Assembly: GCA_008932965.1 (NCBI GenBank)
Contig: WBXG01000009.1
Span: 1 to 32,000 of the forward strand
Length of the DNA stretch: 32,000 bases
Direction: 5' to 3'
Source of the DNA: Verrucomicrobiota bacterium
GTDB lineage: Bacteria > Verrucomicrobiota > Verrucomicrobiia > Chthoniobacterales > UBA6821
Part shown: positions 4,369 through 23,427 of the stretch, in pieces
Layout: each line of letters starts with the position of its first letter
Position numbering within the stretch: the first letter of the stretch is position 1
Position numbers and translations under genes: made by a program
The notes under the pieces: model-generated
Seen by the model: the letters and a program-made list of their open reading frames with translations, nothing else
Told to the model about the DNA's origin: nothing
Database searches by the model: none

Positions 4369-6438
4369 GTGAATTTTTCTAAAAATAGATTGTTGTTCAT
4401 TTGTTGTTTTTTAGGGTTATCCCGAATATATCATGCTGATTTTGCTGCGGCTTGCGAAAGCTATAGAGATACAGCGTCAGGCTCGACCTGCTCCTCGAGC
4501 GGTATAGAACATACGCCTCTTGAAAATCATTGCCTTGATTGCCTAGATCAGCCTTCGTGGCCTCCTCGTCATGATCAGTATGATATATCTGGGCTAGGTA
4601 TCATTGGTATTGAGAACTATGTCTTTTTTTTAAATTGTACTGCTAAGAGTGATTCCGGTGGTGCCTTTGATTTGCTTATGGAGGAGGGGAAAAATCAAGT
4701 TATTATTCGTTATGGAGAGCCAGGAAGTTATTTTTACGAAGTAGTTTTAGAGAAAGAGGAGCCTCTCTATTGGATAAGTGAGCATGATGCTATCGGCTAC
4801 TGTGACTGGAGGAATGCATTTCTCCATAATAAAGAATATCATTTAGAAATTGGAGTAGCATTCAAAGAGGTTGATCATGAACTCAAATCCAATCTTAAGA
4901 ATTATCCTTTAATAGAGAATGCCGTTGTTGTTCGGCAAACAGTGTTAGATGCTATGAGTGATTATTCTCTCCTCCTAGAGGATGAGGAACTTTTCATTGG
5001 TCTTGCCTGCCTTTTTTTTGGGACCGCAGCAAATCATTCGATTCAAAAGTGCAGGGATAATCATTACGATCACGTTGAGGTAATTCAAGAAGCAGGAAAT
5101 GCGGTACTAACAACATCTTTGCTTCAGGAAGAAGGCGATAGCCATCTCCCTTCTACTCATCAATGGAATAATCAGGAACTTTTCGAGACATCGGATGCAG
5201 TTCTCAATCATACTTATCCTGCTCGATTAGCTGCTTCTCCTTTGTTACCAAACGAGGAGGGTTCTGATGTGGCTATTCCATTGATATCAAGACGACTCTT
5301 TCCTAACACCCCAGATCGTGATGTGGAAAATTCTGACTCATCGGACAATGCTGTTTCAGGAATGATTTTGGATATGCACAAAATAGATCTCTCGGCGGAA
5401 AGCGATAGTAGTCCCGATTCGAGTGATAGTGAATATGGAGCAAAAACATTAATGCGAAAAGTAGCACACCAGGTGAAGCACATTAAACCAAAGAACTACG
5501 CCATTAACCAAGATGGAACCGAGGAAATTACAGAGGAGGAAATGAAAGCAAATCCTGGGAAATTTTATATAGCAAATTTCCGTGGCGATTATCTCAGTTA
5601 TTTTAAGACAAATCGTGCTAGAAGAAGTTATGTTAAAAAAGCAGTTGATAGCGTTGTTTCCAATCATCCCATTCCTTTCCGCTCAATAGCAGTTAAAGAA
5701 ATAGAAAGAAAATATCCAGGGAAAGAGGAGAGGGCTGAAGCATTCTCCCAACTCAACACCGCGCACAAGATAAAGGACTCTAGCTATGTGAAAACTTATA
5801 AATCACCAACCCATTTTTCCAGGGCAGTTCAGGAGGTCAGTCCTGAATATGGGAATCCCATCATTTCAACTTCAAAAGATACTAAAGTCAGCCCCGTTTA
5901 TGCCGATCATCCCAAAGATAAGGCTTTGTTATTACCTCAATATTCTGAAAACAAAAAACCAAAGCACCGTCTTATTGGTGTGACTACAGTTATTGTGCAT
6001 GAGGCAAACGAATATGCAGCAAGAACAAAAGCTGATATTGAACAGCTCAGAACGCATCGAGAAATCGGAAAGATATCGGCTGTTGAAAGAAAAAATGATG
6101 AAATTCTCTTTGAGGGTGTTATTGAATCGAAAAACATAGCCGGCTATGTTCCTCTTGCGTATCCCAATTTATCCAAAAAATATTCTTTTAAAGATAAAGG
6201 GTTATTCGGTTTAGATGAGGAAGAGGGATTGGGGCTTACAAGAAGTTCTCCAAAAACACTAGGAAAGAAGGCCAAGGAGAATACCCTTTTTAAAGCTAAT
6301 CGGCGCTTTCAATGGAGGTTAGCAGAAAAATATGTTACCGATAAAAATCCTCGAGGAGAATTAATTTGGGTAGATCGAGAGGGGAATTTCAATCGATTTA
6401 GAGCAAATCAAGATTCTAAGCTCTATATTTCAGACTAG
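4369..6438 (+). CDS. Large hypothetical protein (689 aa) with a hydrophobic N-terminus, a repeat-element-encoded segment (codons ~18-76) and an acidic Ser/Asp-rich linker
   Basis: Long open frame in an AT-rich background. No family recognised. The GTG start has no obvious SD, so the start is uncertain (next in-frame ATG at 4678). The TAG stop is formed at the junction with repeat copy M2. Confidence 0.5.
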   Translation: MNFSKNRLLFICCFLGLSRIYHADFAAACESYRDTASGSTCSSSGIEHTPLENHCLDCLDQPSWPPRHDQYDISGLGIIGIENYVFFLNCTAKSDSGGAFDLLMEEGKNQVIIRYGEPGSYFYEVVLEKEEPLYWISEHDAIGYCDWRNAFLHNKEYHLEIGVAFKEVDHELKSNLKNYPLIENAVVVRQTVLDAMSDYSLLLEDEELFIGLACLFFGTAANHSIQKCRDNHYDHVEVIQEAGNAVLTTSLLQEEGDSHLPSTHQWNNQELFETSDAVLNHTYPARLAASPLLPNEEGSDVAIPLISRRLFPNTPDRDVENSDSSDNAVSGMILDMHKIDLSAESDSSPDSSDSEYGAKTLMRKVAHQVKHIKPKNYAINQDGTEEITEEEMKANPGKFYIANFRGDYLSYFKTNRARRSYVKKAVDSVVSNHPIPFRSIAVKEIERKYPGKEERAEAFSQLNTAHKIKDSSYVKTYKSPTHFSRAVQEVSPEYGNPIISTSKDTKVSPVYADHPKDKALLLPQYSENKKPKHRLIGVTTVIVHEANEYAARTKADIEQLRTHREIGKISAVERKNDEILFEGVIESKNIAGYVPLAYPNLSKKYSFKDKGLFGLDEEEGLGLTRSSPKTLGKKAKENTLFKANRRFQWRLAEKYVTDKNPRGELIWVDREGNFNRFRANQDSKLYISD
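4420..4594 (+). mobile_element. MITE-like element copy M1 (175 bp, diverged), inside ORF 4369..6438
   Basis: The left end tcccgaatatatcatgctgattttgctgcggcttgcgaa and the right end cagccttcgtggcctcctcgtcatgatcagtatgatatatctgggc match the family consensus. It is flanked by TA at 4418-4419 and 4595-4596. Confidence 0.85.
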
Positions 6439-6563
6439 CCCGGATATTTCATACCGATTCTGCTGCGGCTTGCGAACACCTGATGGATGCTGCGTTGATC
6501 TCGAAGTCTTTCCCTATAAGCTTTCGTGATCTCCTCGTCACGATCAGTATGAAATATCCGGGC
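6438..6563 (+). mobile_element. MITE-like element copy M2 (126 bp short variant, intact ends)
   Basis: gcccggatatttcataccgat...atcagtatgaaatatccgggc gives 20 of 21 complementary terminal bases. It is flanked by TA (CTAG on both sides) and lies between ORF 4369..6438 and dnaG. Confidence 0.95.
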
Positions 6564-6640
6564 TAGCAACATTTCTTAAAGAGGGCTGTTGTTGAAACCT
6601 GATGAAGTGGATGATAGGATCGTTCATTTTAGATTACTTC

Positions 6641-8419
6641 ATGAAAATTTCCCAAGAAAGTATTGAGCGAGTGGCTGCTGCAAGCGATATCGTCCATGTG
6701 ATTGGGTCCTATTTTCCGTTGAAGCGTGCTGGAGTAAACTTTCGGGCACTATGTCCTTTTCATGATGAAAAAAGTCCTTCGTTTTATGTAAATCCTACGC
6801 GCCAAACATTCCATTGCTTTGGCTGTGGTGTTGGTGGTGGAGTGTTTCGATTTGTCATGGATTATGAGCATGTCGACTTCCCTATGGCAGTAAGGCGTCT
6901 AGCAGAGCGTTCAGGAATAGCTTTAGTAGAGGAATCGAGTCCTCAGGACATCACCCAGCGTAATGAGCGAGGAAGGCTCTTGGATCTCCATCGTCAAGTT
7001 GCACTTTGGTATCACCATCAGCTACTGCGTTCTCCTGCTGCTGCTCCGGCACGTACCTATTTAAAAAGTCGTGGATTCTCTAAAGAGATGGCAGTATCTT
7101 GGCAGCTTGGATATGCACCAGCTAGCTGGGATGGGGTGAAAAAATGGGGTATAGCAGCCGGATTTCGTAATGCAGAGCTCGTGGCAGCAGGATTGCTTTT
7201 AGAACGTAACTCTCAAGAGACGTATGATCGCTTTCGTCATCGCTTGATGTTTCCTATTCGTAATGATTATGGAGATGTTATTGGTTTTAGCGGTCGTATA
7301 TTATCGGAGGAATCTCAGGAGGCCAAGTATGTCAATTCACCTGAAACAACCCTTTTCAGAAAAGGAAAAATTCTCTTTGGAGTTGATAAAAGTAAGAGAG
7401 CTCTCATTCAATCCGGAGAAGCGATTGTTATGGAGGGGCAAATAGATCTTATTTCTGCTTTTGAGCATGGGTGTCACAATGTAGTTGCCCCCCAAGGAAC
7501 AGCTTTTACAACGGATCAAGCTCGATTGTTGCGACGATTTGTGGAGAAGGTAATTCTTTGTTTTGATTCAGATACTGCTGGAAGGAATGCAGTGGAGCGT
7601 TCTTTGCCAGCTTTATTAGCCAACGGTTTTGAAGTGCGTGTTGCAGAGTTACCCTCAGGTGAGGATCCAGATTCGATGATCCAAAAAGAGGGAATAGTGA
7701 CTTTTCAAAAGCTTCTTGCAGGAGCGGAAGACGTTTTTGACTTTATGATCCATCGAGTTCAAAGAGAGGCTGGGTTTCCAATAAGTCCTCATCGTAGCGC
7801 GGCTTTGGCAAAGCAAATTGCTGGCTACTTAGCCATATTACCCAGTGCATCTTTAAGAGAGACAACAAGTGCCCATGTAGCCATGAGGCTTGGAATTTCT
7901 AGTTCAGCATTACTCGCTGCAGTACCCAGTTCTTTGGTAGCTACTGCGGAATCTGTAGAATCAACAGAAAATAGCAGTCATTCCAAAATTTCTGCTGGCA
8001 CGGAACTTTTATGTCGTCTGGCCCTTGTACATCCAGAAGTACGGGCATGGTTGTGTGAACAGAAATCACCGATGCCGCACGAGCTTCATGCAGAATTAGA
8101 AGTGCTTGAGGAATTGCTTACAGTCGATTTTTCTTCTTCTTCTCAACCAATGGCAGTCCTACTTCCATCACTTTCTCTTTCTCTACAACACCTTGTCTCC
8201 TCATGGGATCTTGAAAAAACAGTTTCTGATCCTTTAAGCACCGCACAAGATATTTGGTCTGGATTGCAGATTGCCTATTGGAAGCGTCAACAAACGGAGG
8301 CAACTGTTCAATTGAGAAAGCCAGGAATCTCTTCAGAGCAAATCCTGTTGCTTCAGAAAGAAATCCTTGACCTGCAGTGCTTCATACGCGAGCGTACTGT
8401 GCCTCGCAAGCCAATTTAA
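6641..8419 (+). CDS. dnaG: DNA primase
   Basis: Zn-ribbon CPFHDEKSPSFYVNPTRQTFHCFGCGVGG, TOPRIM segment EGQIDLIS...CFDSDTAGRNA. The ORF opens at 6602, but MKISQESIERV at 6641 matches the usual primase N-terminus. Confidence 0.9.
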   Translation: MKISQESIERVAAASDIVHVIGSYFPLKRAGVNFRALCPFHDEKSPSFYVNPTRQTFHCFGCGVGGGVFRFVMDYEHVDFPMAVRRLAERSGIALVEESSPQDITQRNERGRLLDLHRQVALWYHHQLLRSPAAAPARTYLKSRGFSKEMAVSWQLGYAPASWDGVKKWGIAAGFRNAELVAAGLLLERNSQETYDRFRHRLMFPIRNDYGDVIGFSGRILSEESQEAKYVNSPETTLFRKGKILFGVDKSKRALIQSGEAIVMEGQIDLISAFEHGCHNVVAPQGTAFTTDQARLLRRFVEKVILCFDSDTAGRNAVERSLPALLANGFEVRVAELPSGEDPDSMIQKEGIVTFQKLLAGAEDVFDFMIHRVQREAGFPISPHRSAALAKQIAGYLAILPSASLRETTSAHVAMRLGISSSALLAAVPSSLVATAESVESTENSSHSKISAGTELLCRLALVHPEVRAWLCEQKSPMPHELHAELEVLEELLTVDFSSSSQPMAVLLPSLSLSLQHLVSSWDLEKTVSDPLSTAQDIWSGLQIAYWKRQQTEATVQLRKPGISSEQILLLQKEILDLQCFIRERTVPRKPI

Positions 8420-8523
8420 TGAAAATGGATATAGGGGCTAGTTTTTCCAACGAAAGCGAGTATATTAATTGAGAATCATTTTTCGCCCTTTCATTCTTTC
8501 CATTTTTTACAGTTTATAAATCA

Positions 8524-10677
8524 GTGACTAAAAAGAAATCTTCCTCATCGCCTAAGCCACTAGCCTCACTCAAAGGAAAAAGTCCCTCATTAAAAAAGCA
8601 AGTGGTGAAAAAAAGTAGTGTTTCAAAAGTTATCACAAAAAAAATGATTCCTATAAAGAAGCCTCTATCTAAGAAGCTGCTACCGGCTCTCAAAAAACCA
8701 GTGAGCCCTAAAAAAGTCTCTCCAGCTTCTAAAAAGAAGATATCTCCAAAGAAACCCTTGCCACGATCCACTAAGGTTACAAAGAAACCAACCTTACAAG
8801 TGGTCAAAAAAGTTTCCAAAAAAAAATTACCTCCCCTAAAAGTCTCGTCTAAAAAAAGTGCATTAAAGCCATTCGTGGTACATCAGGAAGAAAAAAAGGG
8901 TCATTCTTCAGTCGAAAAAAAGCCCACTGATAAAACAGTTAAAGAAAAGAAACCGTTAGAAGAGGCTTTTACTCATTCAAACTCTGAAGTAAAAGCTCTT
9001 TTTATTAAGAGCGATGCTGCTCCTAAAAACCCTGCAGAAGCTCAAAAGCTGCTACAAGAAAAAGTCCGTGAGCTCCTGAAATTAGCAAAGGAGCAAGGAT
9101 ATATAACCTTTGAAGATCTCGAGGAACATCTGCCAACGGGAATGAATAATCCCGAAACAGTTGAATCCATTTTGACCCAACTTCGCATTGTAGAAATAGA
9201 TATTATTGATTCCTCTGATGTTGATCGTGTCAAAGAGATCAAGAAATCGGATGATGATGATGACAAGGACGACAAGGATGAAAAATCGGATGGGCGTCTT
9301 GATATTTTAGATGATCCTGTACGCATGTATCTAAAACAGATGGGGCAAGTTCCCCTTCTTACACGTGAGCAAGAAGTAGAAATTTCCAAACGTATTGAAC
9401 AGGCACAAACAGAAATGCAAAATGTTCTCTACCAATTCGGCTTTGTGGCCCATGCACATATTGATTTAGCACAACGGCTACTGGATGCTCGAGAGCGCTT
9501 TGATCGCGTGATTCTCGATAAAAAAATTGAAAGTCGCGAACGCTATTTAAAAACACTACCTCGTTTGTGTCAACAGCTCCAACGCCTTGCTTCTGAGACC
9601 TCGCTCATTTACAGCAAAAAAATTAATGCCAAAAAAGATCCACCTCCTAAAGACATCAAGGAAATGGAAAAACAGATTGAGGAAATTAACAAACTTTACC
9701 CTCGGTTTTATTTCAAACAGAAGATCACTGAAGATTTTGTTACCGTAGCGGACGACCACATTCGTTTGTTGCAGGAATTGCGTCTAGAGCATGAAAACCA
9801 TATTAAAACACCGAGCCCCACATCGCGTCGTTTGATTCAGGCTATTGTTGCTCAACGAGAGGAACATCATCATCGCAACTGGATGTCAACGGAGCACTTT
9901 GAACTGCAGCATCGAGATCTTAAGAAACATTTTCGTTCTGCCTTGCGTGCTAAGACAGAAATGGTCGAAGCAAACCTTCGTCTTGTTATTTCTATTGCAA
10001 AAAAATATACAAACAGAGGTCTTTCATTCCTTGATTTGATTCAAGAAGGAAACATGGGGCTCATGAAGGCTGTAGAAAAATTCGAGTACCGTCGCGGGTA
10101 TAAATTTTCTACCTATGCAACATGGTGGATTCGTCAAGCGATTACTCGTTCTATTGCAGATCAGGCACGTACTATTCGTATTCCTGTGCATATGATTGAA
10201 ACGATTAATAAATTGATACGAGTGCAAAAGCAGCTTGTTCAAGAATATGGTCGTGAGCCAACCCCTGAAGAAATTGCAGATGAAATCCAGCTTCCTGTAG
10301 AGCGTGTTCGAGCTGTTCTTAAAATGGCCCAACAGCCTATCTCACTGCAGGCACCTGTTGGTGATAGTGATGATACAAGTTTTGGTGATTTCATTGAGGA
10401 TAAATCAGCAGAGAACCCTGCTGATATGGCAGCAATTGTACTACTCAAGGATAAAATTAAAGATGTTCTAGATTCATTAACAGAGCGTGAGCGCCAAGTA
10501 TTAGAACAGCGTTTTGGTCTCGTTGATGGATACTCACGAACGTTAGAAGAAGTTGGAAAACAATTTAAGGTGACGCGTGAACGTATTCGACAGATAGAAG
10601 CAAAGGCTCTTCGCAAAATGCGCCATCCAACACGCCTTCGCCAACTCGAAGGTTTCCTGGAGCCGAAAGACGTTTAA
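8524..10677 (+). CDS. rpoD: Primary RNA polymerase sigma factor (sigma-70) with a ~150-codon Lys-rich N-terminal extension
   Basis: Region 2 reads [39 protein letters not shown]. Regions 3 and 4 read [14 protein letters not shown]...[28 protein letters not shown]. It sits immediately downstream of dnaG, the classical dnaG-rpoD arrangement. The start is a GTG. Confidence 0.9.
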
Positions 10678-10813
10678 CTCGGATATTTCATACTGATTGT
10701 GATGAGAAGATTGCTAAGGCTGATGGATCATGCTTTAGAATAACATTCTGGCTCGGGATGTATGTAGACTATGACCAGCATCTCAATGCTTGCCTGCGTT
10801 GACTCGCTTGCTC
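10677..10813 (+). mobile_element. MITE-like element copy M3 (3'-truncated), abutting M4
   Basis: It starts actcggatatttcatactgat on the rpoD TAA. The internal part aligns with M9 (gatggat..tttaga...tatgta...gcctgcgttgactcgcttgctc). It ends at TA 10814-10815, where M4 begins. Confidence 0.75.
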
Positions 10814-10815
10814 TA

Positions 10816-11075
10816 ACCCGCTTATTTCATACCGATTCTGCTGCAGCTTGCGAACACCTGATGGATACTGCGTCAGCTTCGAATTGCTCCTCGGGCAGTA
10901 TGAAACATACAGCCGTCGTCGCAATCCATCTCCTTCGTTGACTCGCTCGCTCCCGCTCGTCTCGCCCCTTTTAGTGCTGCCTAAAGGCAAGTCTCCACCG
11001 CGGTCTCCCGACCGCCGGTGGTGCCCCATCTGCCTTTGTGGCCTCATTGTTACGATCGGTATGAAATATCCAGAC
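10816..11075 (+). mobile_element. MITE-like element copy M4 (260 bp long variant with extra GC-rich module)
   Basis: Left end acccgcttatttcataccgattctgctgcagcttgcgaacacctgatggat. Right end ttacgatcggtatgaaatatccagac followed by TA. It contains the palindromes ACCGCGGT and accgccggtggt. Confidence 0.9.
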
Positions 11076-11162
11076 TAAATTGTTTCACTGAGGTAAGAGC
11101 CAAAGCCAGACAATTGCGATTGATAATTGCACTTAATCTTACAATGAGGTAATAATGACCAA

Positions 11163-13781
11163 ATGTATTTTTCAACTGAGATTAGAAATTATTTTTTTGG
11201 AATCTGTAACAAAAAATGTTTCTTCATTAGGTTTCTAGCGCTTCTTTTTCTTCCCTTTTGTTTATTAAGTTCTCTTAGGTCAGAAAACTCCGGTGATCCT
11301 GCTCAAGAATTTCTTATTGCCTACCAAAACTTTCAGCAGGCAGAGCGTCTTGAGCGTGCTGGAAAACAGAGTGAAGCCATTACGAAATATCAATATTCAG
11401 AAGGTATCCTCAAGGCTCTAAGCACTAATAATCCCGACTGGCAACAGCCTGTTGTTGATTATCGGTTGCATAAAGTAAGGGATAGTCTTGCACGTCTCAA
11501 CGCTACTGTGCACCAAACAACCTCGGACCATGATGAGTCCTTTGAAAAAACCCCTTTCCAAGAGGGGCCTGCCAATAACTACAAGCCCTCCGGCAAGAGT
11601 ATTTCTGACACTAAAGAAGAACAGAACTTAAAGGAAGGCCCTAGTATCTCCATTACCCCTCCTTCAACAAAAAAAAATCTTCCTAATCCTCAAATTGCTC
11701 AACTTCAACAACAGCTTCAAAAATCAGAATTAGAGCTCAAAAAAGTGCTGCAAAATCTCCATGATAAAACCATTGAACTTGATCACTCTAAGGTTGTTAT
11801 TATCGACATGAAGTCTCAGCTAGAGAAAACAGAACGGCAAGTTTCCGATTTAAAGACTGATCTTTCAAAAGCAAATCTACGTGGAATGCAGCGCGAAGAG
11901 GCACTACAGCAATCTGTAAGAACATTAGAAAGCAAATTAGATGCTCTTACAGCGGAGCAAGAGATTGTTTTAGAGGAAAACAAACAATTGCAAGATCACT
12001 TAAATCAAGCAGAGGCTTCGCTTACTGCAGCAATGGGTGCAAGGCAACATTTAGAGGATTTGCAATTAGAGGTGAACAAAGAAAAAAATAATGCTGCTTT
12101 GCTGCACCAGAAACTTCTTATCTCTCAGAGTGAGTATAAAGCAACCAGTGAGCTGAACAGTACGCTTAAAAAACAACTTTTAGAAGCTAATGCATCACTG
12201 ACTCAATCTGAAAAACAAGCAAAGGAAGCAAGTGCTTTGCGTATCCAGCTCGATAACCTTCGTGCTGATGATGCCTCTTTACAAGCACAGATTAGTGCAA
12301 TGAATAAGGATCAACAGGAAAATTCTAATCACCTGAAGGAGGTTGCTCAAACAGCACAATGCGAGTACCAGGTGTTAGAAACTAAAAAAATAGAAATTGA
12401 AAAAAAACTCTCTGAGGCAAATGAAAAAATAAAAAAACTAGAGAATAATTTACTGCATCAAGATGCAATGGAGGAAGAGATCGCTCACTATAAAAAAGAA
12501 CTCCAGGAGAGTTCCCTGAAATTAATAGATCAAGAAAAGAAAATTACTGAATTAGAGAAAGCGAAGCCAGAAAATGATCAAATTTTGAACGCAAAAGAAA
12601 AAGAACTGGCCTTTGAGCGTCTTAATTCTGAAAAGCTCCTCAAAGATCTTGCTACTGCAACTCAGAAAATATCAGTTCTGCAGGAAGAGGTGCACCTCAA
12701 GGATGATCATTATAGCGAGCTCAAAAAACAATTGGATAGTAAAAGTGAAGAGCTCTTAGCGATTCAGAAAAAAGAAGATCCTTATCAGATAGACGAGAAT
12801 GCTATTGTTGAAAATCAATTACTCAAAGGCATTGTTATTCGTGCATTGAAAGCAGAAGCAAAACGACAGCAAATCAAAAAACTTATCACCGATGACCTCC
12901 AAAAACTTAAAGTGAATTCTGTGACCCTATCCAATGAGCTAAAAAGATTAGCAAAACCTATGAAGCTGACTCCCGATGAAAAAGCTCTATTCAAAGATGT
13001 TCCTACGCTACCCACTTCTTCGGTAACTGAAGAAGAAGAGAATGATGATTTCTTAATGCTCGCAGCAGTTGCTACTAAAAAAGAAGACCATTCGAATTTA
13101 AAAGAAGAGTCAGCTCACTCACAGAATTCTCCTTCAGCGACTTCTAATATCACTCAAGAAGATAAAAGTGCTGATCACAGTTCTAATAATGTTGGTCCTG
13201 TAAATGGAAAAAATAATGCTGAAACTTCACAAAAACATCGTGAATTAATTGCTGCTGCGAAAGAAGAGTTTGAGCATCACAACTATTTTGAAGCAGAAAA
13301 AAAATTCCAGGATGCAATCACAATCTCCCCTGATGACTACTTAACACTTTCTAATTTAGGTGTGGTTCAATTTCAACTTGGTAAAATGGCTGAGGCTGAA
13401 TCTGTACTAAAAAAGGCTGTAGCATTAGATCATAAAAAATCTTTTGCACTCACGACGCTTGGAATTGTGGAATATCGTCAAGAAAAAATGAGTGAGGCAG
13501 AGAAGGATTTAAGGGAAGCTATCGCGATTAATGATCAAGATTTTACAGCGCATAATTACTTGGGAATTGTACTCGCAGCATCGGGTAAGGGAAAAGCTGG
13601 TGAAAGTGAAATCATGAAGGCTTTGGAGATTAATCCACAATATGCTGATGCTCATTTTAACTTAGCTGTGATTTATGCAACGAGTATGCCTCCAGCAAAA
13701 GAGATAGCAAAATCCCACTATCAAAAAGCGATTGGATTGGGCGCTCCCACAGATGTATCTCTTGAAAAGATACTAAATTAA
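11163..13781 (+). CDS. Secreted or membrane-anchored coiled-coil protein with C-terminal TPR repeats (872 aa)
   Basis: Hydrophobic N-terminus (FIRFLALLFLPFCLLSSL). A long Q/E/K/L-rich heptad-like central region. The C-terminal TPR-like repeats read YFEAEKKFQDAITISPDDYLTLSNLGVV..., ALEINPQYADAHFNLAVIY. Confidence 0.65.
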   Translation: MYFSTEIRNYFFGICNKKCFFIRFLALLFLPFCLLSSLRSENSGDPAQEFLIAYQNFQQAERLERAGKQSEAITKYQYSEGILKALSTNNPDWQQPVVDYRLHKVRDSLARLNATVHQTTSDHDESFEKTPFQEGPANNYKPSGKSISDTKEEQNLKEGPSISITPPSTKKNLPNPQIAQLQQQLQKSELELKKVLQNLHDKTIELDHSKVVIIDMKSQLEKTERQVSDLKTDLSKANLRGMQREEALQQSVRTLESKLDALTAEQEIVLEENKQLQDHLNQAEASLTAAMGARQHLEDLQLEVNKEKNNAALLHQKLLISQSEYKATSELNSTLKKQLLEANASLTQSEKQAKEASALRIQLDNLRADDASLQAQISAMNKDQQENSNHLKEVAQTAQCEYQVLETKKIEIEKKLSEANEKIKKLENNLLHQDAMEEEIAHYKKELQESSLKLIDQEKKITELEKAKPENDQILNAKEKELAFERLNSEKLLKDLATATQKISVLQEEVHLKDDHYSELKKQLDSKSEELLAIQKKEDPYQIDENAIVENQLLKGIVIRALKAEAKRQQIKKLITDDLQKLKVNSVTLSNELKRLAKPMKLTPDEKALFKDVPTLPTSSVTEEEENDDFLMLAAVATKKEDHSNLKEESAHSQNSPSATSNITQEDKSADHSSNNVGPVNGKNNAETSQKHRELIAAAKEEFEHHNYFEAEKKFQDAITISPDDYLTLSNLGVVQFQLGKMAEAESVLKKAVALDHKKSFALTTLGIVEYRQEKMSEAEKDLREAIAINDQDFTAHNYLGIVLAASGKGKAGESEIMKALEINPQYADAHFNLAVIYATSMPPAKEIAKSHYQKAIGLGAPTDVSLEKILN

Positions 13782-13920
13782 CCCGAATATTTCATACCGA
13801 CCTATTGCGAAGATGGGAAAATTAGACGGATACTGCGTTAGAGTCATATTTTGACTTAGGCGATGGGGACTCATATAGCTCGGCATCACAATACTTCTCC
13901 CACCGTATACGAATACGTTT
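13781..13920 (+). mobile_element. MITE-like element copy M5 (left end intact, right end decayed)
   Basis: acccgaatatttcataccgac starts on the TAA of the TPR gene. The internal ttagagtcatattttgacttaggcgatgg matches M13. The right boundary is approximate. Confidence 0.7.
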
Positions 13921-13962
13921 TGAAGCGTTGCCCGATAATACGTCAATTTAAAATATTCAGGT

Positions 13963-15432
13963 TTAAAAAGTCATGCTTGCTCTCATTCCAACCACAAAGG
14001 CATTGGGATATGCTTGAGTGACTCCAGGATGAATGACGTATTGTATATCAGGTTGAACCGTGAACCATGGAGTGAGTTGAGCCTGATAGGTAAGTTCTAT
14101 GTCAAAAGCTGTATTTGCAGGAGAGGTTCCTTTGTTTTGTTGTATGGTGCTAATCCCTTGATTGCTGAGTAAACCATAAACAAATGCAAGACCAAGGAGA
14201 TCTTGATTTCTGGTAGGAATAATTCCTTTGTAGTTCAAACCCGAATCGCAGTAAAAGTTGAAAATATTGCGATCACCTGGTTCAAAAGCAATACGATGAA
14301 AAACTCCAAGACCTTGATCACTCTTGACCTCAGTAATTTTTATATCATTAGGTTTTGAATCACTTTGGTGAACGTTTTGATTGGGACAATAAACCTTTTG
14401 ATCAATGATTCCATAGATACCGTAGTTTCCAGGAAACGAATCATTTGGGTTACTAAAATTAGTAAATGTAGAAGAGCTAAACCAAGCACCTGCTTTGATT
14501 TTTCCGGGTAAGGTGCAGTGATAACGATAGGCTGCTTCTGTAAGATAAAGATATCCTTGGTTTGAATTCAGGTTCCAATCAAAACCGTGGTTATTCACAT
14601 TTTGTGGGTAGACATTTCCCTGAAAGAGAGCTGCTTTAAAGGAAAATTGATCATTCGGTTCCAACTTGAGACGTACTCCGGGAGCCCCAACTGGGTAGCC
14701 AGGCCCTCCATTTGGAATACTGGTAAAGATGAATGCAGGCCATCCAAGCGTGTTGTTGAGGAAGAGAGCTGCATAGTCAGAAATGACAAATTCCGAATCA
14801 GCATCCATCTGGCCTACACGCAGAGAAATTTTATCATCAAAAAATGTTTGCTCGAGCCAGAGCTCAATATTTCTAATGGTGCTATAACCGGTAATACTAG
14901 AGACCCCAAATATATCACCTACTAAATTTACTGATGGGTCTTGGCCATCTAGATAAAGCCAACGTGAGTAAAAGGTGCCACCTTTCCAATGAATGATTTT
15001 TTCTAAATTAACCGTTGTTGCCAACTGAAGAACAGAAGCGTAAACACTCCCCGTTTTCATTCCTCCTGTTGTGTTTCCCCAAACTTCATTAATGAAGGAA
15101 AAACCGAGATCGATTCCTTCTTTTGAAAGGGTATCTCTTACCCCAAACCAATCTCCTGTAGCATTATTCTTTTCCAACCATGGTTGAAACTTGCGAATAG
15201 ATTGATTTTGATCAGGCGTTGTTTCTAAACCAGCATCCAGATTGCTTTCCGGCATCTGAAGCTGATTTATATGAAACAAGGGATTGGGATCATCGTTATT
15301 AAGGACTGGGGAGAGGGGCTCTGCTTTGAGTGATTGGCTCACAAACAACATCACTAAAAATACAAAGAACAGTACCAATCTTGAAAAAACATCAGAGGTT
15401 ATAAGTACAAGCTTCATGAAAAAAATGAGCAC
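13963..15432 (-). CDS. Carbohydrate-selective porin, OprB family
   Basis: Signal-like N-terminus and a terminal aromatic residue (MTF). The OprB-like core reads IELWLEQTFFDDKISLRVGQMDADSEFVISDYAALFLNNTLGWPAF. The start could be the second ATG at 15417. Confidence 0.75.
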   Translation of the reverse strand: MLIFFMKLVLITSDVFSRLVLFFVFLVMLFVSQSLKAEPLSPVLNNDDPNPLFHINQLQMPESNLDAGLETTPDQNQSIRKFQPWLEKNNATGDWFGVRDTLSKEGIDLGFSFINEVWGNTTGGMKTGSVYASVLQLATTVNLEKIIHWKGGTFYSRWLYLDGQDPSVNLVGDIFGVSSITGYSTIRNIELWLEQTFFDDKISLRVGQMDADSEFVISDYAALFLNNTLGWPAFIFTSIPNGGPGYPVGAPGVRLKLEPNDQFSFKAALFQGNVYPQNVNNHGFDWNLNSNQGYLYLTEAAYRYHCTLPGKIKAGAWFSSSTFTNFSNPNDSFPGNYGIYGIIDQKVYCPNQNVHQSDSKPNDIKITEVKSDQGLGVFHRIAFEPGDRNIFNFYCDSGLNYKGIIPTRNQDLLGLAFVYGLLSNQGISTIQQNKGTSPANTAFDIELTYQAQLTPWFTVQPDIQYVIHPGVTQAYPNAFVVGMRASMTF

Positions 15433-15523
15433 TATCTGCTGTTCATAAAATTCACTCAGATTTCATCATTCCAAGAAGCTGTACCATTCACATCAATATT
15501 CTTGGTCAACATATTTTCTCTAA

Positions 15524-16264
15524 CTAATTTAGGAACTGTGGAATTTTTCCTAATCGTTTAGGATGAAGGCCTCTTTTTTTAGAGACGAGCCCGTTTTGAA
15601 CACAGTACTCAGAGATAGTGGCAACAATTTCACGTGCTGTACGACGGCGATCTATAGAAACACCACTACCCATGGCTCCCCCTACAGAACCTCCTGCATT
15701 AATAAGAACATTGGAGAGAACAAAGGGACCAATGGGAGTGAATGCAGCAGCAGCTCCAGGAGCTATTCCCGAACCTCCTGTTGTTTTTATACTTAACAAA
15801 ATAGGTTGATCTGATTGTTGGGAAAGATCGATAAGTTGAATATTTGTTTCCATTTTTGTTTTACCTAATCCTAATCCAATTCCTGCTCGTAAGAGTCGGC
15901 TCCCTTCCTGGACAGATTCAAAAGAGCCTTTGAGTAACCAGAAATTTCCATTAGGTGGTTTTTCTCCAGGTTCCAAAAGAACGGCAGGAGCAATATGTTT
16001 ATTGAGGCGAAGGATCAAATCATCTGCAAATTGAGTTCGCTCACTTTCAATGAGCTTAACAAGCTCTTTTCCTTTTCGATTCACCTGAAAGTGGAGCGTT
16101 GGAGCTTCAACTTTTTCAACATAAATCCGTTCAGGGAGTTTTGTTGGATGCATGCTACTAGGTTGAATATTATTCACGCTTACAGAAGCGCAGCTCATCA
16201 TTAATAAAGCGATGATGCTGATGATGAAATAACGAAGATAAAAGAGGAATAGAGAATGCTTCAC
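15524..16264 (-). CDS. Lipoprotein (DUF4410-like, tentative)
   Basis: The ORF track starts at 16381, but codons upstream of 16264 are read out of repeat copy M6. GTG 16264 gives MKHSLFLFYLRYFIISIIALLMMSC, a signal peptide with a lipobox-like Cys. A Gly-rich C-terminal half follows. Confidence 0.6.
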   Translation of the reverse strand: MKHSLFLFYLRYFIISIIALLMMSCASVSVNNIQPSSMHPTKLPERIYVEKVEAPTLHFQVNRKGKELVKLIESERTQFADDLILRLNKHIAPAVLLEPGEKPPNGNFWLLKGSFESVQEGSRLLRAGIGLGLGKTKMETNIQLIDLSQQSDQPILLSIKTTGGSGIAPGAAAAFTPIGPFVLSNVLINAGGSVGGAMGSGVSIDRRRTAREIVATISEYCVQNGLVSKKRGLHPKRLGKIPQFLN

Positions 16265-16288
16265 AATGAGAAAATAAAATCGAATAAA

Positions 16289-16463
16289 TGTGGATATTTC
16301 ATACCAATCACCTGCGGAGACCGAGAAGCTAGGTGGATAGTACGTTGATCTCGAAGTCTTCCTCGAGCAGTCTGTACACACAGCAATTATCAGACTTCAT
16401 CGCTCGCCTGGTCCCATCAGCCTTCGCGACCTCCTCGTCACGATCAGTATGAAATATCCGAGT
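16289..16463 (+). mobile_element. MITE-like element copy M6 (~175 bp)
   Basis: tgtggatatttcataccaatc...ccatcagccttcgcgacctcctcgtcacgatcagtatgaaatatccgagt followed by TA. It lies between the divergent lipoprotein and transporter genes. Confidence 0.9.
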
Positions 16464-16545
16464 TAAGAGGTTGAGGCTATAAGTTCCATATTTCTTTTAA
16501 AACTTTAAACTGTCATATCTCCAAAAATCTTTTCAGTATCAAGGA

Positions 16546-17808
16546 ATGAATACTGATCTCATCGTTATGATTCCTTTTGTCATTATGCTCCTAGCTGTAG
16601 CATTTATGCCCTTTGTACATAGCACTTGGTGGAACTTACATTTTAAAAAGGTTTCGTTCTTTTTAGCGGGTATCATTATTCTCTATTATCTCCTGGTACG
16701 ACATGATGTTCCACGGTTGTGTATTCTTTTGAGTGAGTATTTTAGTTTTATCGTTCTTATTGGATCACTTTTTTTGGTTACTGGGGGAATTTATTTACGT
16801 GTTCAGGGTGAAGCAACCCCACTGAGAAACACTATTTTTTTAATAGTAGGTTCCATCATGGCAGTTTTCATTGGAACCACAGGAGCCTCCATGCTTCTGA
16901 TTCGGCCTTGGATTCATAGTAACCGTTATCGCATTACTGCATTTCATATTATATTTTTCATTTTTATGATTAGCAATATTGGTGGATGTTTGAGTCCTAT
17001 TGGGGATCCCCCTCTCTTTTTAGGATATCTTCGTGGAGTCCCTTTTTTTTGGCTTTTTCAACATCTTTGGTTTGCTTGGCTGCTTTCCATGAGTTTACTT
17101 GCAGCCATTTTTTATTTTCTAGACAGAAAAAATTTTCTGAAAGCACCTCTCTCGGTTCGTACTTTTGAAACATATAACGAGGCTTGGACTTTTAAGGGTC
17201 TATTCAATCTTTTCTTTTTAGCAATAATTATTGGAGCGGTTTTTCTTCCTTCTCCATGGAGAGAAATAATGATGATTCTAGCTGCTTTGAGTTCTTATTT
17301 GTTAACTTCAAAAAATATTTTTGTAGCAAATAAATTTACATTTCATCCTATAGAAGAGGTTGCATGGCTTTTCTTTGGTATATTTGCCACAATGGTCCCT
17401 GTTCTTGATTACCTTGAAGAAAGAGTATCTCTCACTTCTTCTTATCCCGCGCTAAAACCCATCCATTTTTATTATTTAACAGGATTTCTTTCCACCTGCC
17501 TGGATAATGCACCTACCTACCTGGCATTGCTTCAACTCCATTTAGGAATGAATGGAATGAGTATAGAGAAAGTCAATGATGTCGCCTATGTTGCCATGAA
17601 CAATCCACAATTTCTTACTGCGATTGCTCTTGGAGCGGTTTTCTTTGGAGCAACTACCTACATTGGTAATGGTCCTAACTTTATGGTAAAAAGTATCGCG
17701 GAAGATGCAGAGATTCGTATGCCAAATTTTGTGCATTATATCTTGTGCTATTCGTTACCAATTTTAGCTCCTATCTTGTTTCTCATTGGATGGGTTTTTT
17801 TCCACTAA
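16546..17808 (+). CDS. Polytopic ion transporter (ArsB/NhaD/citrate-transporter superfamily, Na+/H+ antiporter-like)
   Basis: 420 aa, about 10-12 hydrophobic segments with a GDPP loop motif. The family call is tentative. The TAA stop is formed at the junction with repeat copy M7. Confidence 0.55.
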   Translation: MNTDLIVMIPFVIMLLAVAFMPFVHSTWWNLHFKKVSFFLAGIIILYYLLVRHDVPRLCILLSEYFSFIVLIGSLFLVTGGIYLRVQGEATPLRNTIFLIVGSIMAVFIGTTGASMLLIRPWIHSNRYRITAFHIIFFIFMISNIGGCLSPIGDPPLFLGYLRGVPFFWLFQHLWFAWLLSMSLLAAIFYFLDRKNFLKAPLSVRTFETYNEAWTFKGLFNLFFLAIIIGAVFLPSPWREIMMILAALSSYLLTSKNIFVANKFTFHPIEEVAWLFFGIFATMVPVLDYLEERVSLTSSYPALKPIHFYYLTGFLSTCLDNAPTYLALLQLHLGMNGMSIEKVNDVAYVAMNNPQFLTAIALGAVFFGATTYIGNGPNFMVKSIAEDAEIRMPNFVHYILCYSLPILAPILFLIGWVFFH

Positions 17809-17861
17809 CCCGGATATTTCATACTGATCGTGAGGAGGAGGCCGTGAAGGCTGATGGGCAA
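17808..17861 (-). repeat. MITE-family fragment M7 (right-end ~54 bp only, inverted orientation)
   Basis: acccggatatttcatactgatcgtgaggaggaggccgtgaaggctgatggg is the near-exact reverse complement of the M6 right end. It starts on the transporter TAA. Confidence 0.75.
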
Positions 17862-17894
17862 CCATACCCTGCTATCACTTCTTTTTAAGTTGCT

Positions 17895-19513: not shown

Positions 19514-19665
19514 GTCCTGATATTTTATGCTGATCGTACCATCACTAATTAAGAAGCCATCAGGCAGATTGCTTTGGTAGTATTCAATGAGCGAGAAGAA
19601 TGGAGGCTAGCGAGTCAAACGCGGCATCCATGAAGCTCTCTTTGTGGATAGAGAGAAACTTCGGG
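19514..19665 (-). repeat. MITE-family copy M8 (degenerate, inverted orientation), ending 8 nt from tRNA-Val after TTAA
   Basis: gtcctgatattttatgctgatcgt resembles the terminal repeat. agcgagtcaaacgcggcatccatg matches the reverse complement of the M9 interior. It ends gagaaacttcggg followed by ttaa. Aligned by eye, so low certainty. Confidence 0.55.
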
Positions 19666-19752: not shown

Positions 19753-19760
19753 TGAAGTTA

Positions 19761-19961
19761 GTGTATTTCACACCGATCTACTGCGGAGACCATGAAATCA
19801 CATGGATGCGGCGTTAGACTCCCATTGTGACTTGGGAAGTATGTACTTATACAGCCGTCGTCAAATTACGTGTCTGCGTTGACTCGCTCACTCCCGACCG
19901 CCGGCGGTGCCCCGTTAGCCTTCGCAGCTCCCTCCTTACGATCAGTATGAAATATCCGGGC
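19761..19961 (+). mobile_element. MITE-like element copy M9 (201 bp), 8 nt downstream of tRNA-Val and overlapping the dnaE 3' end
   Basis: The left end has a small deletion (gtgtatttcacaccgatc). The right end ccttacgatcagtatgaaatatccgggc is intact. It is flanked by TA at 19759-60 and 19962-63. It contains the perfect 12-bp palindrome ACCGCCGGCGGT at 19897-19908. Confidence 0.9.
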
Positions 19962-22900
19962 TAGTGTACAAGAATTTTAGAAGTGCTTTTTTAAGAGAGT
20001 TTTCGTCATCCACACGAAAATGAGCTCCTGTTTTTAATGGAACAATACTTCCGTCAGGATGGACTATTTCTAAAATCAAAGAACGAGTACCATGGTGTTG
20101 TTTTAGAATTGTTCTAATACTTGTGAGGTTTTCTAAATTTAATTTTGTGCGATCGAGTTTGATTTTTAATGGTTTTTTCGAAAGTAGAGGTTGGAGCAGT
20201 TTGAAGTCTGAACCGATGGCTCTTACCATGCCCTCCCGTGGAATAATTTTTAAGACACACGAGACTACTGTTCCTGGCTTTAGAAGCTTTTCGTGTTCGG
20301 TGAAAGCTTCATTCCAGACGGTCATTTCAATGTTGCCGCTATAATCCTCTAGGGCAATAATTCCAAATGCTTTCCCTTCCTTCTTTGTGAACTTTTTTTC
20401 TACCGTAGAAATGATGCCTGCTACTTTTTCTTTGAGTGGTTCTGTTGATTCTTGAAGATGAATAAGTGGAGTCAATTTTTCCTTCTCTAATGTCCCTTCA
20501 TAATCCTCTAGAGGATGACCGGTGACATAGAACCCAAGAAGTTCTTTTTCGTATGAAAGCTGAATAGCTCTAGGCCAAGGTATGGCTTGGGGTTTGGAAT
20601 GAGTGGTGTTTTGTGTTTGCGATGGAGCGAAGGATTCTAAGCTGTCAAAAAGTGAAACCTGTCCCGAGGCTCGATCTCGTTGAATTGAGGCAGCTGAGGC
20701 AATAGCAGGTTCAATAGCTTCAAAGAGTTCAGCTCGATGACGTCCGTCAAAATCAAAAGCACCAGCTTTGACTAAACTCTCAAGGATCTTTTTGTTCACA
20801 CTGCGTGTATCGAGTCGCGAGCAAAAATCCTCGAGTGATTTAAAAGGACCATGTGCTTCACGTTCTGCAATAGCTGAGGCCATGGCAGCAGCACCTACAT
20901 TCTTGACAGCAGCAAGGCCGAATCGAATGCCACGTGCTTTTTTCTCCTCTTCAGGCAAAAAGGTGAGTCCGCTCTTATTGATGTTCGGTGGAAGAATTGT
21001 AATTTCCATGCGAGTGCAGTCGGCCACAAAAGTCGTAATCTTCTCAGTATTGTTGACAGCATTACTGAGGAGTCCAGCCATGAATTCAATAGTATAATTT
21101 GCCTTGAGATAGGCTGTCTGATAGGAAATCAGCGCATAGGCAGCACTGTGGCTTTTGTTAAAACCATATTCCGCAAATTTTTCTAAGAAATCAAAAATGG
21201 CATTTGCCTGCTTCTCTGGAATGTTATTGAGCCGCTTACATCCCTCAACAAAAGTGAGGCGTTCTTTGGCCATCTTTTCTTTATCTTTTTTACCCATGGC
21301 ACGACGTAAGAGGTCTGCCTGGCCAAGGGTGTAACCAGCAAGAATATTAGCCGCTTGTTGCACCTGCTCTTGATACACAATGATTCCGTAAGTTTCGGAG
21401 CAAATTGTTTCTAGTAGCGGTTGAGCATAGCTCATTTTTTTTGTCCCTTTTTTTCGTTCAATATACTCATCAATGAACTGCATTGGGCCTGGACGATAGA
21501 GTGCAATTAGTGCAATGAGGTCTTCAAAACGATCTATTTGAAGACGTTTGGCGACACTCGTCATTCCCCCTGACTCGAGCTGGAAGAGGCCAACGGATTC
21601 GCCTCGATTAAGAAGGGCGAAGGTTACTGGATCATCTATGGGAATATTTTCTAAAGAAAATGTAGGATTCTTTTGATGAATGAGTTTTACAGCATCACTC
21701 ATCACAGTAAGTGTCGTAAGTCCCAAAAAATCCATTTTAAGAAGACCTAAGTCGGTAAGGGGAGCCATGGAATATTGGCTTACGATTCCACCATCATTAC
21801 CTCGAGTCAGCGGAATATAGTCAGAAAGATCCCGGTCGGCGATTACGATTCCAGCTGCATGAACGCCACTATTGCGCGTGATCCCTTCTAAAATAGTTGC
21901 GTAGTTCCAGAGCTGGCTTGTCGATTGTTCTTGTTCTACTGCTATTTTTAAATCTGAATTTTTATCTATTGCACCTGGTTCATGTTTCCCTTTTTTATCA
22001 ACACCATTGAGAGTAATGTTAAGTTCATTAGGGATCATTTTTGCAATACGATCTGCGTCGCTGTAGCTCCACCCTAAAACACGTCCTACATCACGAACAA
22101 CGCTCTTAGCACCCATTGTGCCAAAAGTGATGATTTGGGAAACAGCACGCTCCCCATACTTATTGCGAACATAGTCGATAACTTCACCTCGACGGTTCTG
22201 GCAAAAATCAATATCGATATCGGGAGGGCTAATACGATCCGGGTTGAGGAAACGTTCAAAAATCAATCCATATCGTAGTGGGTCAAGGTCTGTAATCCCA
22301 AGAACATAGGCGACTAGGGATCCAGCTGCAGATCCACGTCCAGGGCCAACAGGAATGCCATGTGTTTTTGCATAATGAATAAAATCCCAAACAATGAGGA
22401 AGTAACTCACAAAGCCAGTTTTTTCTAGAATAGAGAGTTCATAGTCAAGTCGCTGGCGCAGCTCTCCATCCGACTGTATACGATCCCCATAGCGTCGCTG
22501 CATCCCCTCTTCAGAAAGCTCACGTAGAAAGCCTTCTCGAGTTTTTCCTTCAGGTGGTTTGTAATCTGGGTACTTAGAATGTCCAAATTCGATGGTCAGG
22601 TTACAACGCTCAGCAATAGTGAGGGTGTTGCTAATTGCATCAGGACAATCGGCAAAGAGAGCTGCCATTTCCTCACCTGATTTAAAGTAGAGTTCCGGAA
22701 CATAGTGCATCCTTTTTTCATCAGCTACCATAGCCCCTGTACCAATGCAAATCATGACATCGTGGGCTTCATGATGGGCGCGTTCGAGAAAGTGGACATC
22801 ATTAGTGGCGACGAGTCCTAATTCAAATTTTTTGGCAAGTTCGATTAACAAGGGACGATTGTGACGTTGTGCTTCAATCCCATGATCGCTTAATTCAATA

Positions 22901-23427
22901 AAGAAATTTTCTTTTCCAAAAATAGTACGATATTCTTGAGTAAGGGTTGATGCTTTTTCGAAATCTCCGCTAGTTAAAGCAACATTAATTTCTCCTTTTA
23001 AGCATCCACTGAGCGCAATGAGGCCCTCGGCATGCTGGGTAAGGAGTTTTTTATCAACGCGTGGTTTATAGTAGAAACCTTCTAGGTGTGCCGCTGTGCT
23101 CAGCTTAATAAGATTGTGATAGCCTGTATCATTCATGGCTAAGAGAGTCAAATGATAGGCACTCTCTTTTCCATGATTGCCACCCTTTTTTTCATACATC
23201 GATCCTGGAGCTACATAAATTTCGCACCCGATGATTGGCTTGATTCCGGCTTCAGTGGCTTTTTGATAAAATTCAATAGCTCCAAAAAGATTTCCGTGAT
23301 CGGTGAGTGCCACAGCAGGCATATTGCATGCATGAGCCTTAGCAATAAGATCATCAATACGAATGGCCCCATCCAGCATGGAATACTCGCTATGAAGATG
23401 CAGATGAACAAAGGGAACCGTAGACAT
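19942..23427 (-). CDS. dnaE: DNA polymerase III alpha subunit
   Basis: 1161 aa with the PHP domain FVHLHLHSEYSMLDGA, GFVSYFLIVWDFI, PDIDIDF, and the finger/OB regions. The last 6 codons (SPDISY) and the TGA stop lie inside the right terminal repeat of copy M9. Confidence 0.92.
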   Translation of the reverse strand: MSTVPFVHLHLHSEYSMLDGAIRIDDLIAKAHACNMPAVALTDHGNLFGAIEFYQKATEAGIKPIIGCEIYVAPGSMYEKKGGNHGKESAYHLTLLAMNDTGYHNLIKLSTAAHLEGFYYKPRVDKKLLTQHAEGLIALSGCLKGEINVALTSGDFEKASTLTQEYRTIFGKENFFIELSDHGIEAQRHNRPLLIELAKKFELGLVATNDVHFLERAHHEAHDVMICIGTGAMVADEKRMHYVPELYFKSGEEMAALFADCPDAISNTLTIAERCNLTIEFGHSKYPDYKPPEGKTREGFLRELSEEGMQRRYGDRIQSDGELRQRLDYELSILEKTGFVSYFLIVWDFIHYAKTHGIPVGPGRGSAAGSLVAYVLGITDLDPLRYGLIFERFLNPDRISPPDIDIDFCQNRRGEVIDYVRNKYGERAVSQIITFGTMGAKSVVRDVGRVLGWSYSDADRIAKMIPNELNITLNGVDKKGKHEPGAIDKNSDLKIAVEQEQSTSQLWNYATILEGITRNSGVHAAGIVIADRDLSDYIPLTRGNDGGIVSQYSMAPLTDLGLLKMDFLGLTTLTVMSDAVKLIHQKNPTFSLENIPIDDPVTFALLNRGESVGLFQLESGGMTSVAKRLQIDRFEDLIALIALYRPGPMQFIDEYIERKKGTKKMSYAQPLLETICSETYGIIVYQEQVQQAANILAGYTLGQADLLRRAMGKKDKEKMAKERLTFVEGCKRLNNIPEKQANAIFDFLEKFAEYGFNKSHSAAYALISYQTAYLKANYTIEFMAGLLSNAVNNTEKITTFVADCTRMEITILPPNINKSGLTFLPEEEKKARGIRFGLAAVKNVGAAAMASAIAEREAHGPFKSLEDFCSRLDTRSVNKKILESLVKAGAFDFDGRHRAELFEAIEPAIASAASIQRDRASGQVSLFDSLESFAPSQTQNTTHSKPQAIPWPRAIQLSYEKELLGFYVTGHPLEDYEGTLEKEKLTPLIHLQESTEPLKEKVAGIISTVEKKFTKKEGKAFGIIALEDYSGNIEMTVWNEAFTEHEKLLKPGTVVSCVLKIIPREGMVRAIGSDFKLLQPLLSKKPLKIKLDRTKLNLENLTSIRTILKQHHGTRSLILEIVHPDGSIVPLKTGAHFRVDDENSLKKALLKFLYTSPDISY

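Follow-up and report, generated by a model that had tools for sequence, protein, structure and literature searches.

Short IS1380-family-derived repeats on stop codons of a Verrucomicrobiota contig: a probable outcome of a duplicated YTAR target and selection within genes

Why should a dispersed repeat begin exactly where genes end? The question is raised by the first 32,000 nucleotides of contig WBXG01000009.1 (assembly GCA_008932965.1) from a Verrucomicrobiota bacterium of the Chthoniobacterales, referred to below as the window, in which copies of one short repeat family abut the stop codons of several long open reading frames (ORFs). These repeats are miniature transposable elements with inverted repeats (MITEs) of an insertion sequence (IS) of the IS1380 family. 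The reading favored here, with a probability of roughly 0.85, is that the elements insert at the tetranucleotide YTAR (Y, pyrimidine; R, purine), duplicate it, and are held out of genes by purifying selection, the placement on stop codons being largely what this choice of target and this selection would produce. The evidence comes from the anatomy of the element, its 4-bp duplications, its IS1380-family partner, the conserved positions of stop codons in orthologues, and a census of copies in related sequences.

Four junctions had been picked out in an earlier, sequence-only reading of this DNA, and all of them are as it described, each TAR ending a long ORF. At 6435-6438, gaCTAG is followed by CCCGGATAT, the start of the terminal repeat CCCGGATATTTCATAC, and TAG 6436-6438 is the stop of ORF 4369..6438 (689 aa, function unassigned). 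The rpoD gene (8524..10677) stops at TAA 10675-10677, where gtTTAA (10674-10677) precedes CTCGGATAT, read further as CTCGGATATTTCATAC. A TPR protein gene (11163..13781) stops at TAA 13779-13781, with aaTTAA (13778-13781) preceding CCCGAATAT, in the longer read CCCGAATATTTCATAC, and a CitMHS_2 transporter gene (16546..17808) stops at TAA 17806-17808, with caCTAA (17805-17808) again preceding CCCGGATAT at the start of CCCGGATATTTCATAC. To these can be added a fifth junction, the OprB stop at 13963-13965 on the minus strand, which lies within the right-hand TTAA (13963-13966) of the element whose left-hand TTAA ends the TPR gene. The dnaE gene (19942..23427, minus strand) ends differently, running six codons into a terminal repeat and stopping at its TGA 19942-19944; its 3′ end reads ACT AGC CCG GAT ATT TCA TAC TGA, with the predicted tail ...TSPDISY*. 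Altogether, 5 of the 10-11 YTAR stop codons in the window are occupied, against 75 other non-coding YTAR sites that are free. It is important to note that the window was picked for the stop-codon feature itself, and the wider census is the fairer test.

The repeats share a 16-bp terminal inverted repeat, CCCGGATATTTCATAC, present at both ends, besides longer imperfect sub-terminal repeats. The 15-mer CCGGATATTTCATAC occurs 21 times in the window at no more than three mismatches, where 0.54 occurrences are expected by chance. Copies are 124-397 bp long, with internal variants of 124, ~176, ~205 and ~258 bp; the window copies are non-coding, and their folds are long hairpins. A similarity-based inventory gave about 14 copies and fragments totaling 1.58 kb, or 4.9% of the window; the degenerate copy at 19515-19664 escaped it and was located by eye. 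In the best-preserved copy, 31139..31322, the 25-nt arms 31139-31163 and 31298-31322 are 100% complementary. On every criterion for such elements, the window repeats are MITEs of an IS1380-family insertion sequence. The individual copies are as follows.

4421..4593: MITE of 173 bp, in frame within ORF 4369..6438 after a signal-peptide-like N-terminus; flanks TTAT (4417-4420) and CTAG (4594-4597).
6435..6566: MITE of 124 bp (6439-6562) with CTAG on both sides, a perfect 4-bp direct repeat; TAG 6436-6438 ends the ORF.
10674..11078: composite of TTAA (rpoD stop), partial MITE 10678-10812, CTAA 10813-16, full MITE 10817-11074 and CTAA 11075-78.
13778..13966: MITE of 181 bp (13782-13962) with a degenerate right repeat; the left TTAA is the TPR stop (plus strand), the right TTAA the OprB stop (minus strand).
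16286..16466: MITE of ~173 bp between the divergent DUF4410 and transporter genes; right TTAA, left flank degenerate; the orthologous site is empty in L125/L126.
17805..17864: CTAA with the transporter stop 17806-08, followed by the truncated MITE end 17809-17864.
19515..19664: degenerate MITE 5′ of tRNA-Val, right flank TTAA, boundaries approximate.
19756..19964: MITE of 205 bp with CTAG 19961-64, between the tRNA-Val 3′ end and dnaE.
24294..24334: solo MITE end of 37 bp with CTAG, in the 5′ part of the called coaX ORF 23522..24370, read CTA then GCC.
27773..27793: solo 17-bp terminal repeat with TTAA.
30820..30910: partial MITE, left end, 3′ of nrdA; flank decayed to CCTG.
31085..31126: MITE fragment.
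31139..31322: TTAA, a 176-bp MITE and TTAA; the best-preserved copy.
31385..31432: solo MITE end with decayed flank.

Target duplications are legible in the window as CTAG/CTAG at 6435/6563, TTAA/TTAA at 31139/31319 and CTAA/CTAA at 10813/11075, the last being the perfect non-palindromic duplication of the inner full copy 10817-11074. The element at 13782-13962 is full length, as its alignment to the related copy L227:10908-11086 shows (L numbers denote the loci compared with the window).

Several features of these copies deserve mention in their own right. The commonest copy is 176 bp long, so that copy and duplication together add exactly 180 bp, and insert length is a multiple of three in 59 of 122 paired elements (window plus loci L003-L225), with ~41 expected. 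The tRNA-Val gene (19678-19752) is flanked by a MITE on each side, and the downstream copy, which also gives the dnaE stop, begins 4-9 nt past the tRNA 3′ end. The rpoD-TPR spacer that holds the composite measures 454 bp in L115/L119 and 486 bp in L116 and the window, a 32-bp difference, while the transporter protein is 100% identical; in L116 the OprB gene is split and 347 bp shorter. Judged by its transporter, the window comes from a Chthoniobacterales/Verrucomicrobiae metagenome-assembled genome near GCA_029866255.1. Abutting MITEs with one TTAA in common occur at L068:337/344 and L088:5502/5509. At L129:11263-11478, 3′ of a transporter orthologue, is another kind of MITE-like repeat, whose ends are CTGTAGCCG...CGGCTACAG, and the internal module GAGCGGGAGCGAGCGAGTCAA and its complement are common to that repeat and to the longer window variants (10933-10970, 19874-19896), a pattern that suggests modular exchange among repeat families.

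The assignment to the IS1380 family comes from a larger element with the same ends. One genome per species was scanned with the 15-mer, and the many chance matches outside Verrucomicrobiota were set aside; the same ends were found in many Verrucomicrobiota metagenome-assembled genomes (MAGs), with a G+C content of 40 to 68%. At L061:4916-6716 these ends stand 1.8 kb apart, flanked by CTAG on both sides, and enclose a transposase ORF whose product matches NF033539 (E 1.6e-72) and PF13701 (E 2.7e-97). A search with this transposase returned thousands of homologues of ~480 aa, mostly on 2-kb contigs. Two of these proteins, P0237 and P0218, score 352.5 and 344 bits against the NF033539 cutoff of 180 and cover model positions 2-418 of 419, and P0237 is encoded by a 1753-bp IS (loci L228-L237) with the same ends as the window MITEs. 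The autonomous partner, with a length of 1753-1800 bp, one ORF, ends in CCCGG and 4-bp repeats, fits the ISfinder description of the IS1380 family, whose members are 1.55-2.0 kb long, have ends starting with CC and produce a 4-5 bp duplication. On contig Ga0562382_10336 (L229/L230), two 1753-bp IS with identical transposase lie head to tail with a single CTAA between them, in the order CTAA-IS-CTAA-IS-CTAA. Related ends also occur outside Verrucomicrobiota, at L100:6208-6384 in a Sulfuricellaceae MAG (CTAG C CCGGATATTGCATAA) and as a 33-bp minimal palindrome, CCGGATATTTCATGAATAGTATGAAATATCCGG, at L113:1851-1883 in an Omnitrophota MAG, which hints that the host range of the IS lineage may be wider than this phylum.

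What these elements duplicate determines how the stop codons are to be understood. The sequence-only reading held that the element begins with a purine which, placed after a TA, rebuilds TAA or TAG. In that account, which corresponds to a TA-only duplication of the IS630/Tc1 type, the stop codon is remade by element sequence, and TA + R + CCCGG is indeed what stands at every junction. The alternative is that all four bases are host sequence. Among 381 non-redundant element ends, the flank is nearly always YTAR followed by C-CCGG; 85% of the ends have YTAR, mostly as TTAA (164), CTAG (72), TTAG (51) and CTAA (36). The purine co-varies with the base before the TA, CTAG and TTAA being dominant, which likewise places the purine in the target. 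IS copies with identical transposase protein (the term refers to the protein; the IS DNA was not aligned copy to copy) carry G next to CCCGG in L228 and L237 (TTAG...TTAG) and A in L229/L230 and L235 (CTAA...CTAA), in each case matching the opposite flank as a direct repeat, as do the CTAG...CTAG flanks of the L061 IS, a perfect direct repeat. Of the 122 paired MITEs, 98 have YTAR on both sides and 64 of those 98 have a perfect 4-bp repeat; 12 of the perfect repeats are non-palindromic (CTAA/CTAA in seven, TTAG/TTAG in five), where the TA-only model expects well under one and would need asymmetric element termini. The A-or-G IS copies and the non-palindromic repeats together rule out the purine as the start of the element, and the partner transposase belongs to IS1380, a family with 4-5 bp duplications, not to IS630. 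The TA-only account is thus very unlikely, even though among older, discordant MITE pairs the inner base is complementary between the two ends, as a terminal inverted repeat would have it, in 24 cases and not in 10. The flanking purine is part of a duplicated host target YTAR, and the stop codon is accordingly host sequence copied to both sides, because YTAR is duplicated whole.

Comparison of filled and empty sites confirms that the family is mobile. Such pairs were found for L188 and L170 (gttTTAAaccc, 95% flank identity), for L065 and L179 (92%), and for the window at 16290-16461 and L125. They cannot separate the 2-bp from the 4-bp model, since both predict the same empty site. Furthermore, target use differs among hosts: the flanks are nearly all CTAG in high-GC hosts (L006, L048, L056, L061, L073), and TTAA is dominant at ~41-45% G+C. 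Either target use follows site availability, or CTAG decays to TTAG, CTAA and TTAA.

Orthologous genes indicate that the stops were there before the elements in most of the cases available. In L226 and L227, which carry no element at this place, the rpoD orthologues terminate at the identical codon (...aaa gac gtg TAA), and transporter orthologues (82-89% identity; L125, L127, L129) end at residue 420 in agC TAG, cgT TAG and cgC TAG, again with no element. At another locus, L088, the gene ends in ttt TAG directly next to an element, and its L017 orthologue has ttt TGA in the corresponding codon. The exception in the window is ORF 4369..6438, whose orthologues stop four codons earlier (L226:7870-7902, L227:6540-6574), the window (6409-6438) having TAT in place of their TAA; the TAG of the duplicated CTAG now acts as a back-up stop for this ORF. 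The TPR/OprB pair is instructive in a different way. Removal of the element and one TTAA in silico leaves two convergent stops overlapping in a single TTAA, and the duplication gave each gene its own stop. Two other census elements have both ends on convergent stops, at L167:1731-2000 and L177:4499-4672.

The reading frames through the element account for the copies that do lie within genes. Relative to Y-T-A-R-C-CCGG, frame 0 contains the TAR stop. Frame +1 (xYT ARC CCG GAT ATT TCA TAC TGA) ends after six codons at the TGA in CATACTGA, a stop that is used in 12 census cases and by dnaE. Only frame +2 (YTA RCC CGG ATA TTT CAT ...) is able to stay open; alone in having no built-in stops, it runs through the entire unit uninterrupted in ~25% of copies for each of the two directions. 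Both in-gene copies of the window are in frame +2, at TTA 4417-4419 and CTA 24334-24332, so the sequence-only reading was right that they have TA at codon positions 2-3. This frame rule is forced rather than selected, because the other two frames hold stops. An in-frame YTAR is impossible inside a gene except at the stop codon, as it contains TAR, and an element inserted at that stop does not alter the protein, as had been proposed. The additional argument that TA at codon positions 1-2 elsewhere would create a premature stop is unneeded: a Tyr codon, for instance, is no YTAR target.

The copy at 4421..4593 is, from comparison with its orthologues, a genuine in-frame insertion. ORF 4369..6438 gains 53-59 residues; the orthologues P0122 and P0123 have the common N-terminus M-FSK...GL and are without residues 18-70, and the corresponding empty sites in L226/L227 read GGA TTA TTT. 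For the copy in the coaX ORF, translation of the MITE-derived 5′ part is uncertain, as the Pan_kinase domain begins only at residue 39, past that part.

Are stop codons occupied more often than the target predicts? The census drew on 826 kb in total, made up of the window, 16 loci of related genomes, 3 orthologous loci and 96 metagenome loci. For each of the 381 non-redundant ends it recorded how far the element lies from the closest inward-reading stop codon. Exactly on the stop codon (distance 0) lie 41 of these ends, in ORFs of 112-1057 codons, and a further 12 lie at distance -19, where the gene stops at the TGA within the repeat. These are the only two spikes over a flat background of ~0.6 ends per nucleotide across 1-100 nt. 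That the junctions are a matter of chance or of ORF calling might be entertained from the window, where the sites are few and one of the four stops (6436) is not at the ancestral position. Against the exact junction in 41 of 381 independent ends in other genomes, the sharpness of the spike at distance 0 and the conservation of the stops in orthologues, this explanation has a negligible chance of being correct.

The expected number of junctions was obtained from an availability null that counted target sites at the stop codon and up to W nt downstream of it, other coding sequence excluded. With TA dinucleotides as targets and W = 50-200, stop junctions are in large excess (p 2e-4 to 3e-8); this is the comparison with TA density that the sequence-only reading had called for, carried out on the 826 kb. 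With YTAR as the target and decayed flanks included, 37 junctions were observed and 34.6 expected at W = 50 (p 0.33), and 36 against 29.1 at W = 100 (p 0.08). Enrichment tests of this kind therefore need the true target motif, as the same junctions are highly significant against TA density and near expectation against YTAR. The single rule by which the earlier reading explained the pile-up holds in that insertions at stops are harmless; it fails in treating the pile-up as unusual, the number being near what YTAR sites within 50 nt predict. Copies would accumulate at gene ends mainly through target specificity and selection against insertions within genes.

These observations can be assembled into a mechanism. 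A DDE transposase would recognize the 16-bp ends CCCGGATATTTCATAC, act in trans on the MITEs, integrate at YTAR with the preference TTAA > CTAG > TTAG/CTAA, and duplicate all four bases. As YTAR carries TAA or TAG on both strands, it could stand in frame only at a stop, and the duplication would hand an intact stop to the upstream gene; where convergent genes end on one TTAA, each would retain its stop after insertion. Insertions at stops would thus be neutral, because in-frame YTAR occurs only there and the duplication preserves the stop. Other genic insertions would be purged, except near the 3′ end, where the TGA after six codons terminates the protein, or where the third frame is open. Copies would consequently remain in short intergenic spacers, with at least a third of those near genes placed precisely on a stop codon, and selection rather than targeting would have shaped their distribution.

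Several points weigh against this account. No autonomous copy was found in the window or in the low-GC Chthoniobacterales part of the 826-kb census set (tblastn matched only L061 and L091), and the partner IS was seen only in higher-GC relatives. The census loci were picked for containing the repeat, and the gene calls were 651 simple ORFs of at least 100 codons. Metagenome contigs can be chimeric across repeats, as the common flanks of L231/L237 and L234/L236 illustrate; the discordant IS flanks occur on 2-4 kb contigs of this kind, with one flank common to another contig, and are probably assembly chimeras. Among discordant (old) MITE pairs, differences fall on the outer base in 22 cases and on the inner base in 6, an imbalance that decay of a 4-bp duplication alone would not predict. 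This asymmetry is absent from pairs with perfect terminal repeats, and assembly chimeras may contribute to it. Carry-over of donor flank bases in the style of piggyBac was considered for the 22 to 6 asymmetry and rejected, since it is estimated to predict no such asymmetry. With the YTAR null and decayed flanks included, W = 200 gives 35 junctions against 23.5 expected (p 0.007), and occupancy at stops is 2.4 times that at other YTARs where genes converge and 1.2 times where they lie in tandem. These figures leave room for some extra preference or selection at stops. When only intact YTAR flanks are counted, p ranges from 0.036 to 7e-5 over W = 50-200, and per-site occupancy is 16% at YTAR stop codons against 9-10% at other YTARs within 50-100 nt. 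Beyond YTAR itself, the flanks of the census ends show no preference, and at stops neither element orientation is favored. Promoter avoidance is not supported as the cause of the residual excess, which is larger in convergent (2.4x) than in tandem (1.2x) arrangements.

The same residual excess over distal YTARs (p 0.007 at 200 nt, 2.4-fold in convergent pairs) is what would be expected if copies at gene ends were kept by positive selection, their hairpin serving in the 3′ untranslated region to terminate transcription, to provide an RNase III site or to stabilize the mRNA. The folds are very stable and place the stop codon in the stem (-54.6 kcal/mol and z -7.6 for 6435..6566; -85 kcal/mol and z -8.4 for 31139..31322), and mRNA processing is known to be influenced by Correia/NEMIS elements (PMC2229807). 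Nevertheless, a selected role of this type is unlikely: stops show neither an excess over YTAR sites within 50 nt nor a bias in element orientation, and 2 of the 5 window junction copies are truncated or composite (10678-10812, 17809-17864), for which the full hairpin is impossible. Moreover, a search for intrinsic terminators (hairpin and T run) gave 22 terminator-like sites in 4000-20500, none of them on an element, and Rfam matched only tRNA-Val and no element. A broader proposal would see the family as adapted to be harmless to translation, through stops on both strands, a TGA in the second frame, a 180-bp unit and, in roughly one copy in four, an open third frame, and as thereby able to settle in compact genomes on stops, on those that convergent genes share and even within ORFs, while hosts may retain the stop hairpins as 3′-end RNA elements; this, too, we regard as improbable. 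The preferred explanation therefore remains that of a duplicated YTAR target combined with purifying selection in genes.

If this explanation holds, a transposon with a stop on both strands of its target tetranucleotide would accumulate at stop codons and separate convergent stops that overlap, with neither gene harmed. For annotation, spotting such junctions would help to avoid mis-called gene ends and N-terminal extensions and to mask an abundant repeat (~5% of the window) in Verrucomicrobiota MAGs.

Comparison with known systems places this family between several groups. Bacterial MITEs with TA-containing termini, mainly intergenic and with occasional in-frame ORF fusions, are known (PMC2229807). 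Correia/NEMIS, RUP and ERIC elements resemble the window MITEs in their 100-300 bp length, inverted repeats, target duplication and strong RNA hairpins, but involve TA duplication or IS630-type transposases, whereas the window family has a 4-bp duplication and an IS1380 partner. Rickettsia palindromic elements are similar in that some copies lie in frame and are read through in protein genes, as in ORF 4369..6438; they differ in that most copies of the window family are intergenic, and expression of the inserted peptide is here predicted from the sequence.

Within the IS1380 family (IS1380, IS1247, ISEcp1, ISPme1), the partner IS has in common with other members a full-length match to the NCBIfam equivalog model, CC ends and a single ORF. 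The window copies differ as short non-coding derivatives, and the target here is a defined YTAR tetranucleotide. ISEcp1 makes 5-bp duplications and is not known to have a target of this kind. The duplications made by IS1247 are likewise of 5 bp (PMC3281130). In the literature searched, no description of IS1380-derived MITEs or of the stop-codon pattern was found.

Finally, IS1380 transposases have been treated as distant prokaryotic relatives of the eukaryotic piggyBac (PMC10140906, PMC10813416). Like the window family, piggyBac duplicates a 4-bp palindromic target of the TTAA type. The ends of piggyBac elements, CCC...GGG, are also similar. A comparison of the transposase with solved structures, piggyBac included, gave no sequence match. 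In contrast to the TTAA-specificity of piggyBac, the target here is relaxed to YTAR in a bacterial host: TTAA is commonest (164 of the 381 ends), but CTAG, TTAG and CTAA are also used, with CTAG frequent above all in high-GC hosts. An IS1380 lineage of bacteria whose 4-bp TTAA/CTAG target resembles that of piggyBac could offer a system for studying how such specificity works and how it evolved.

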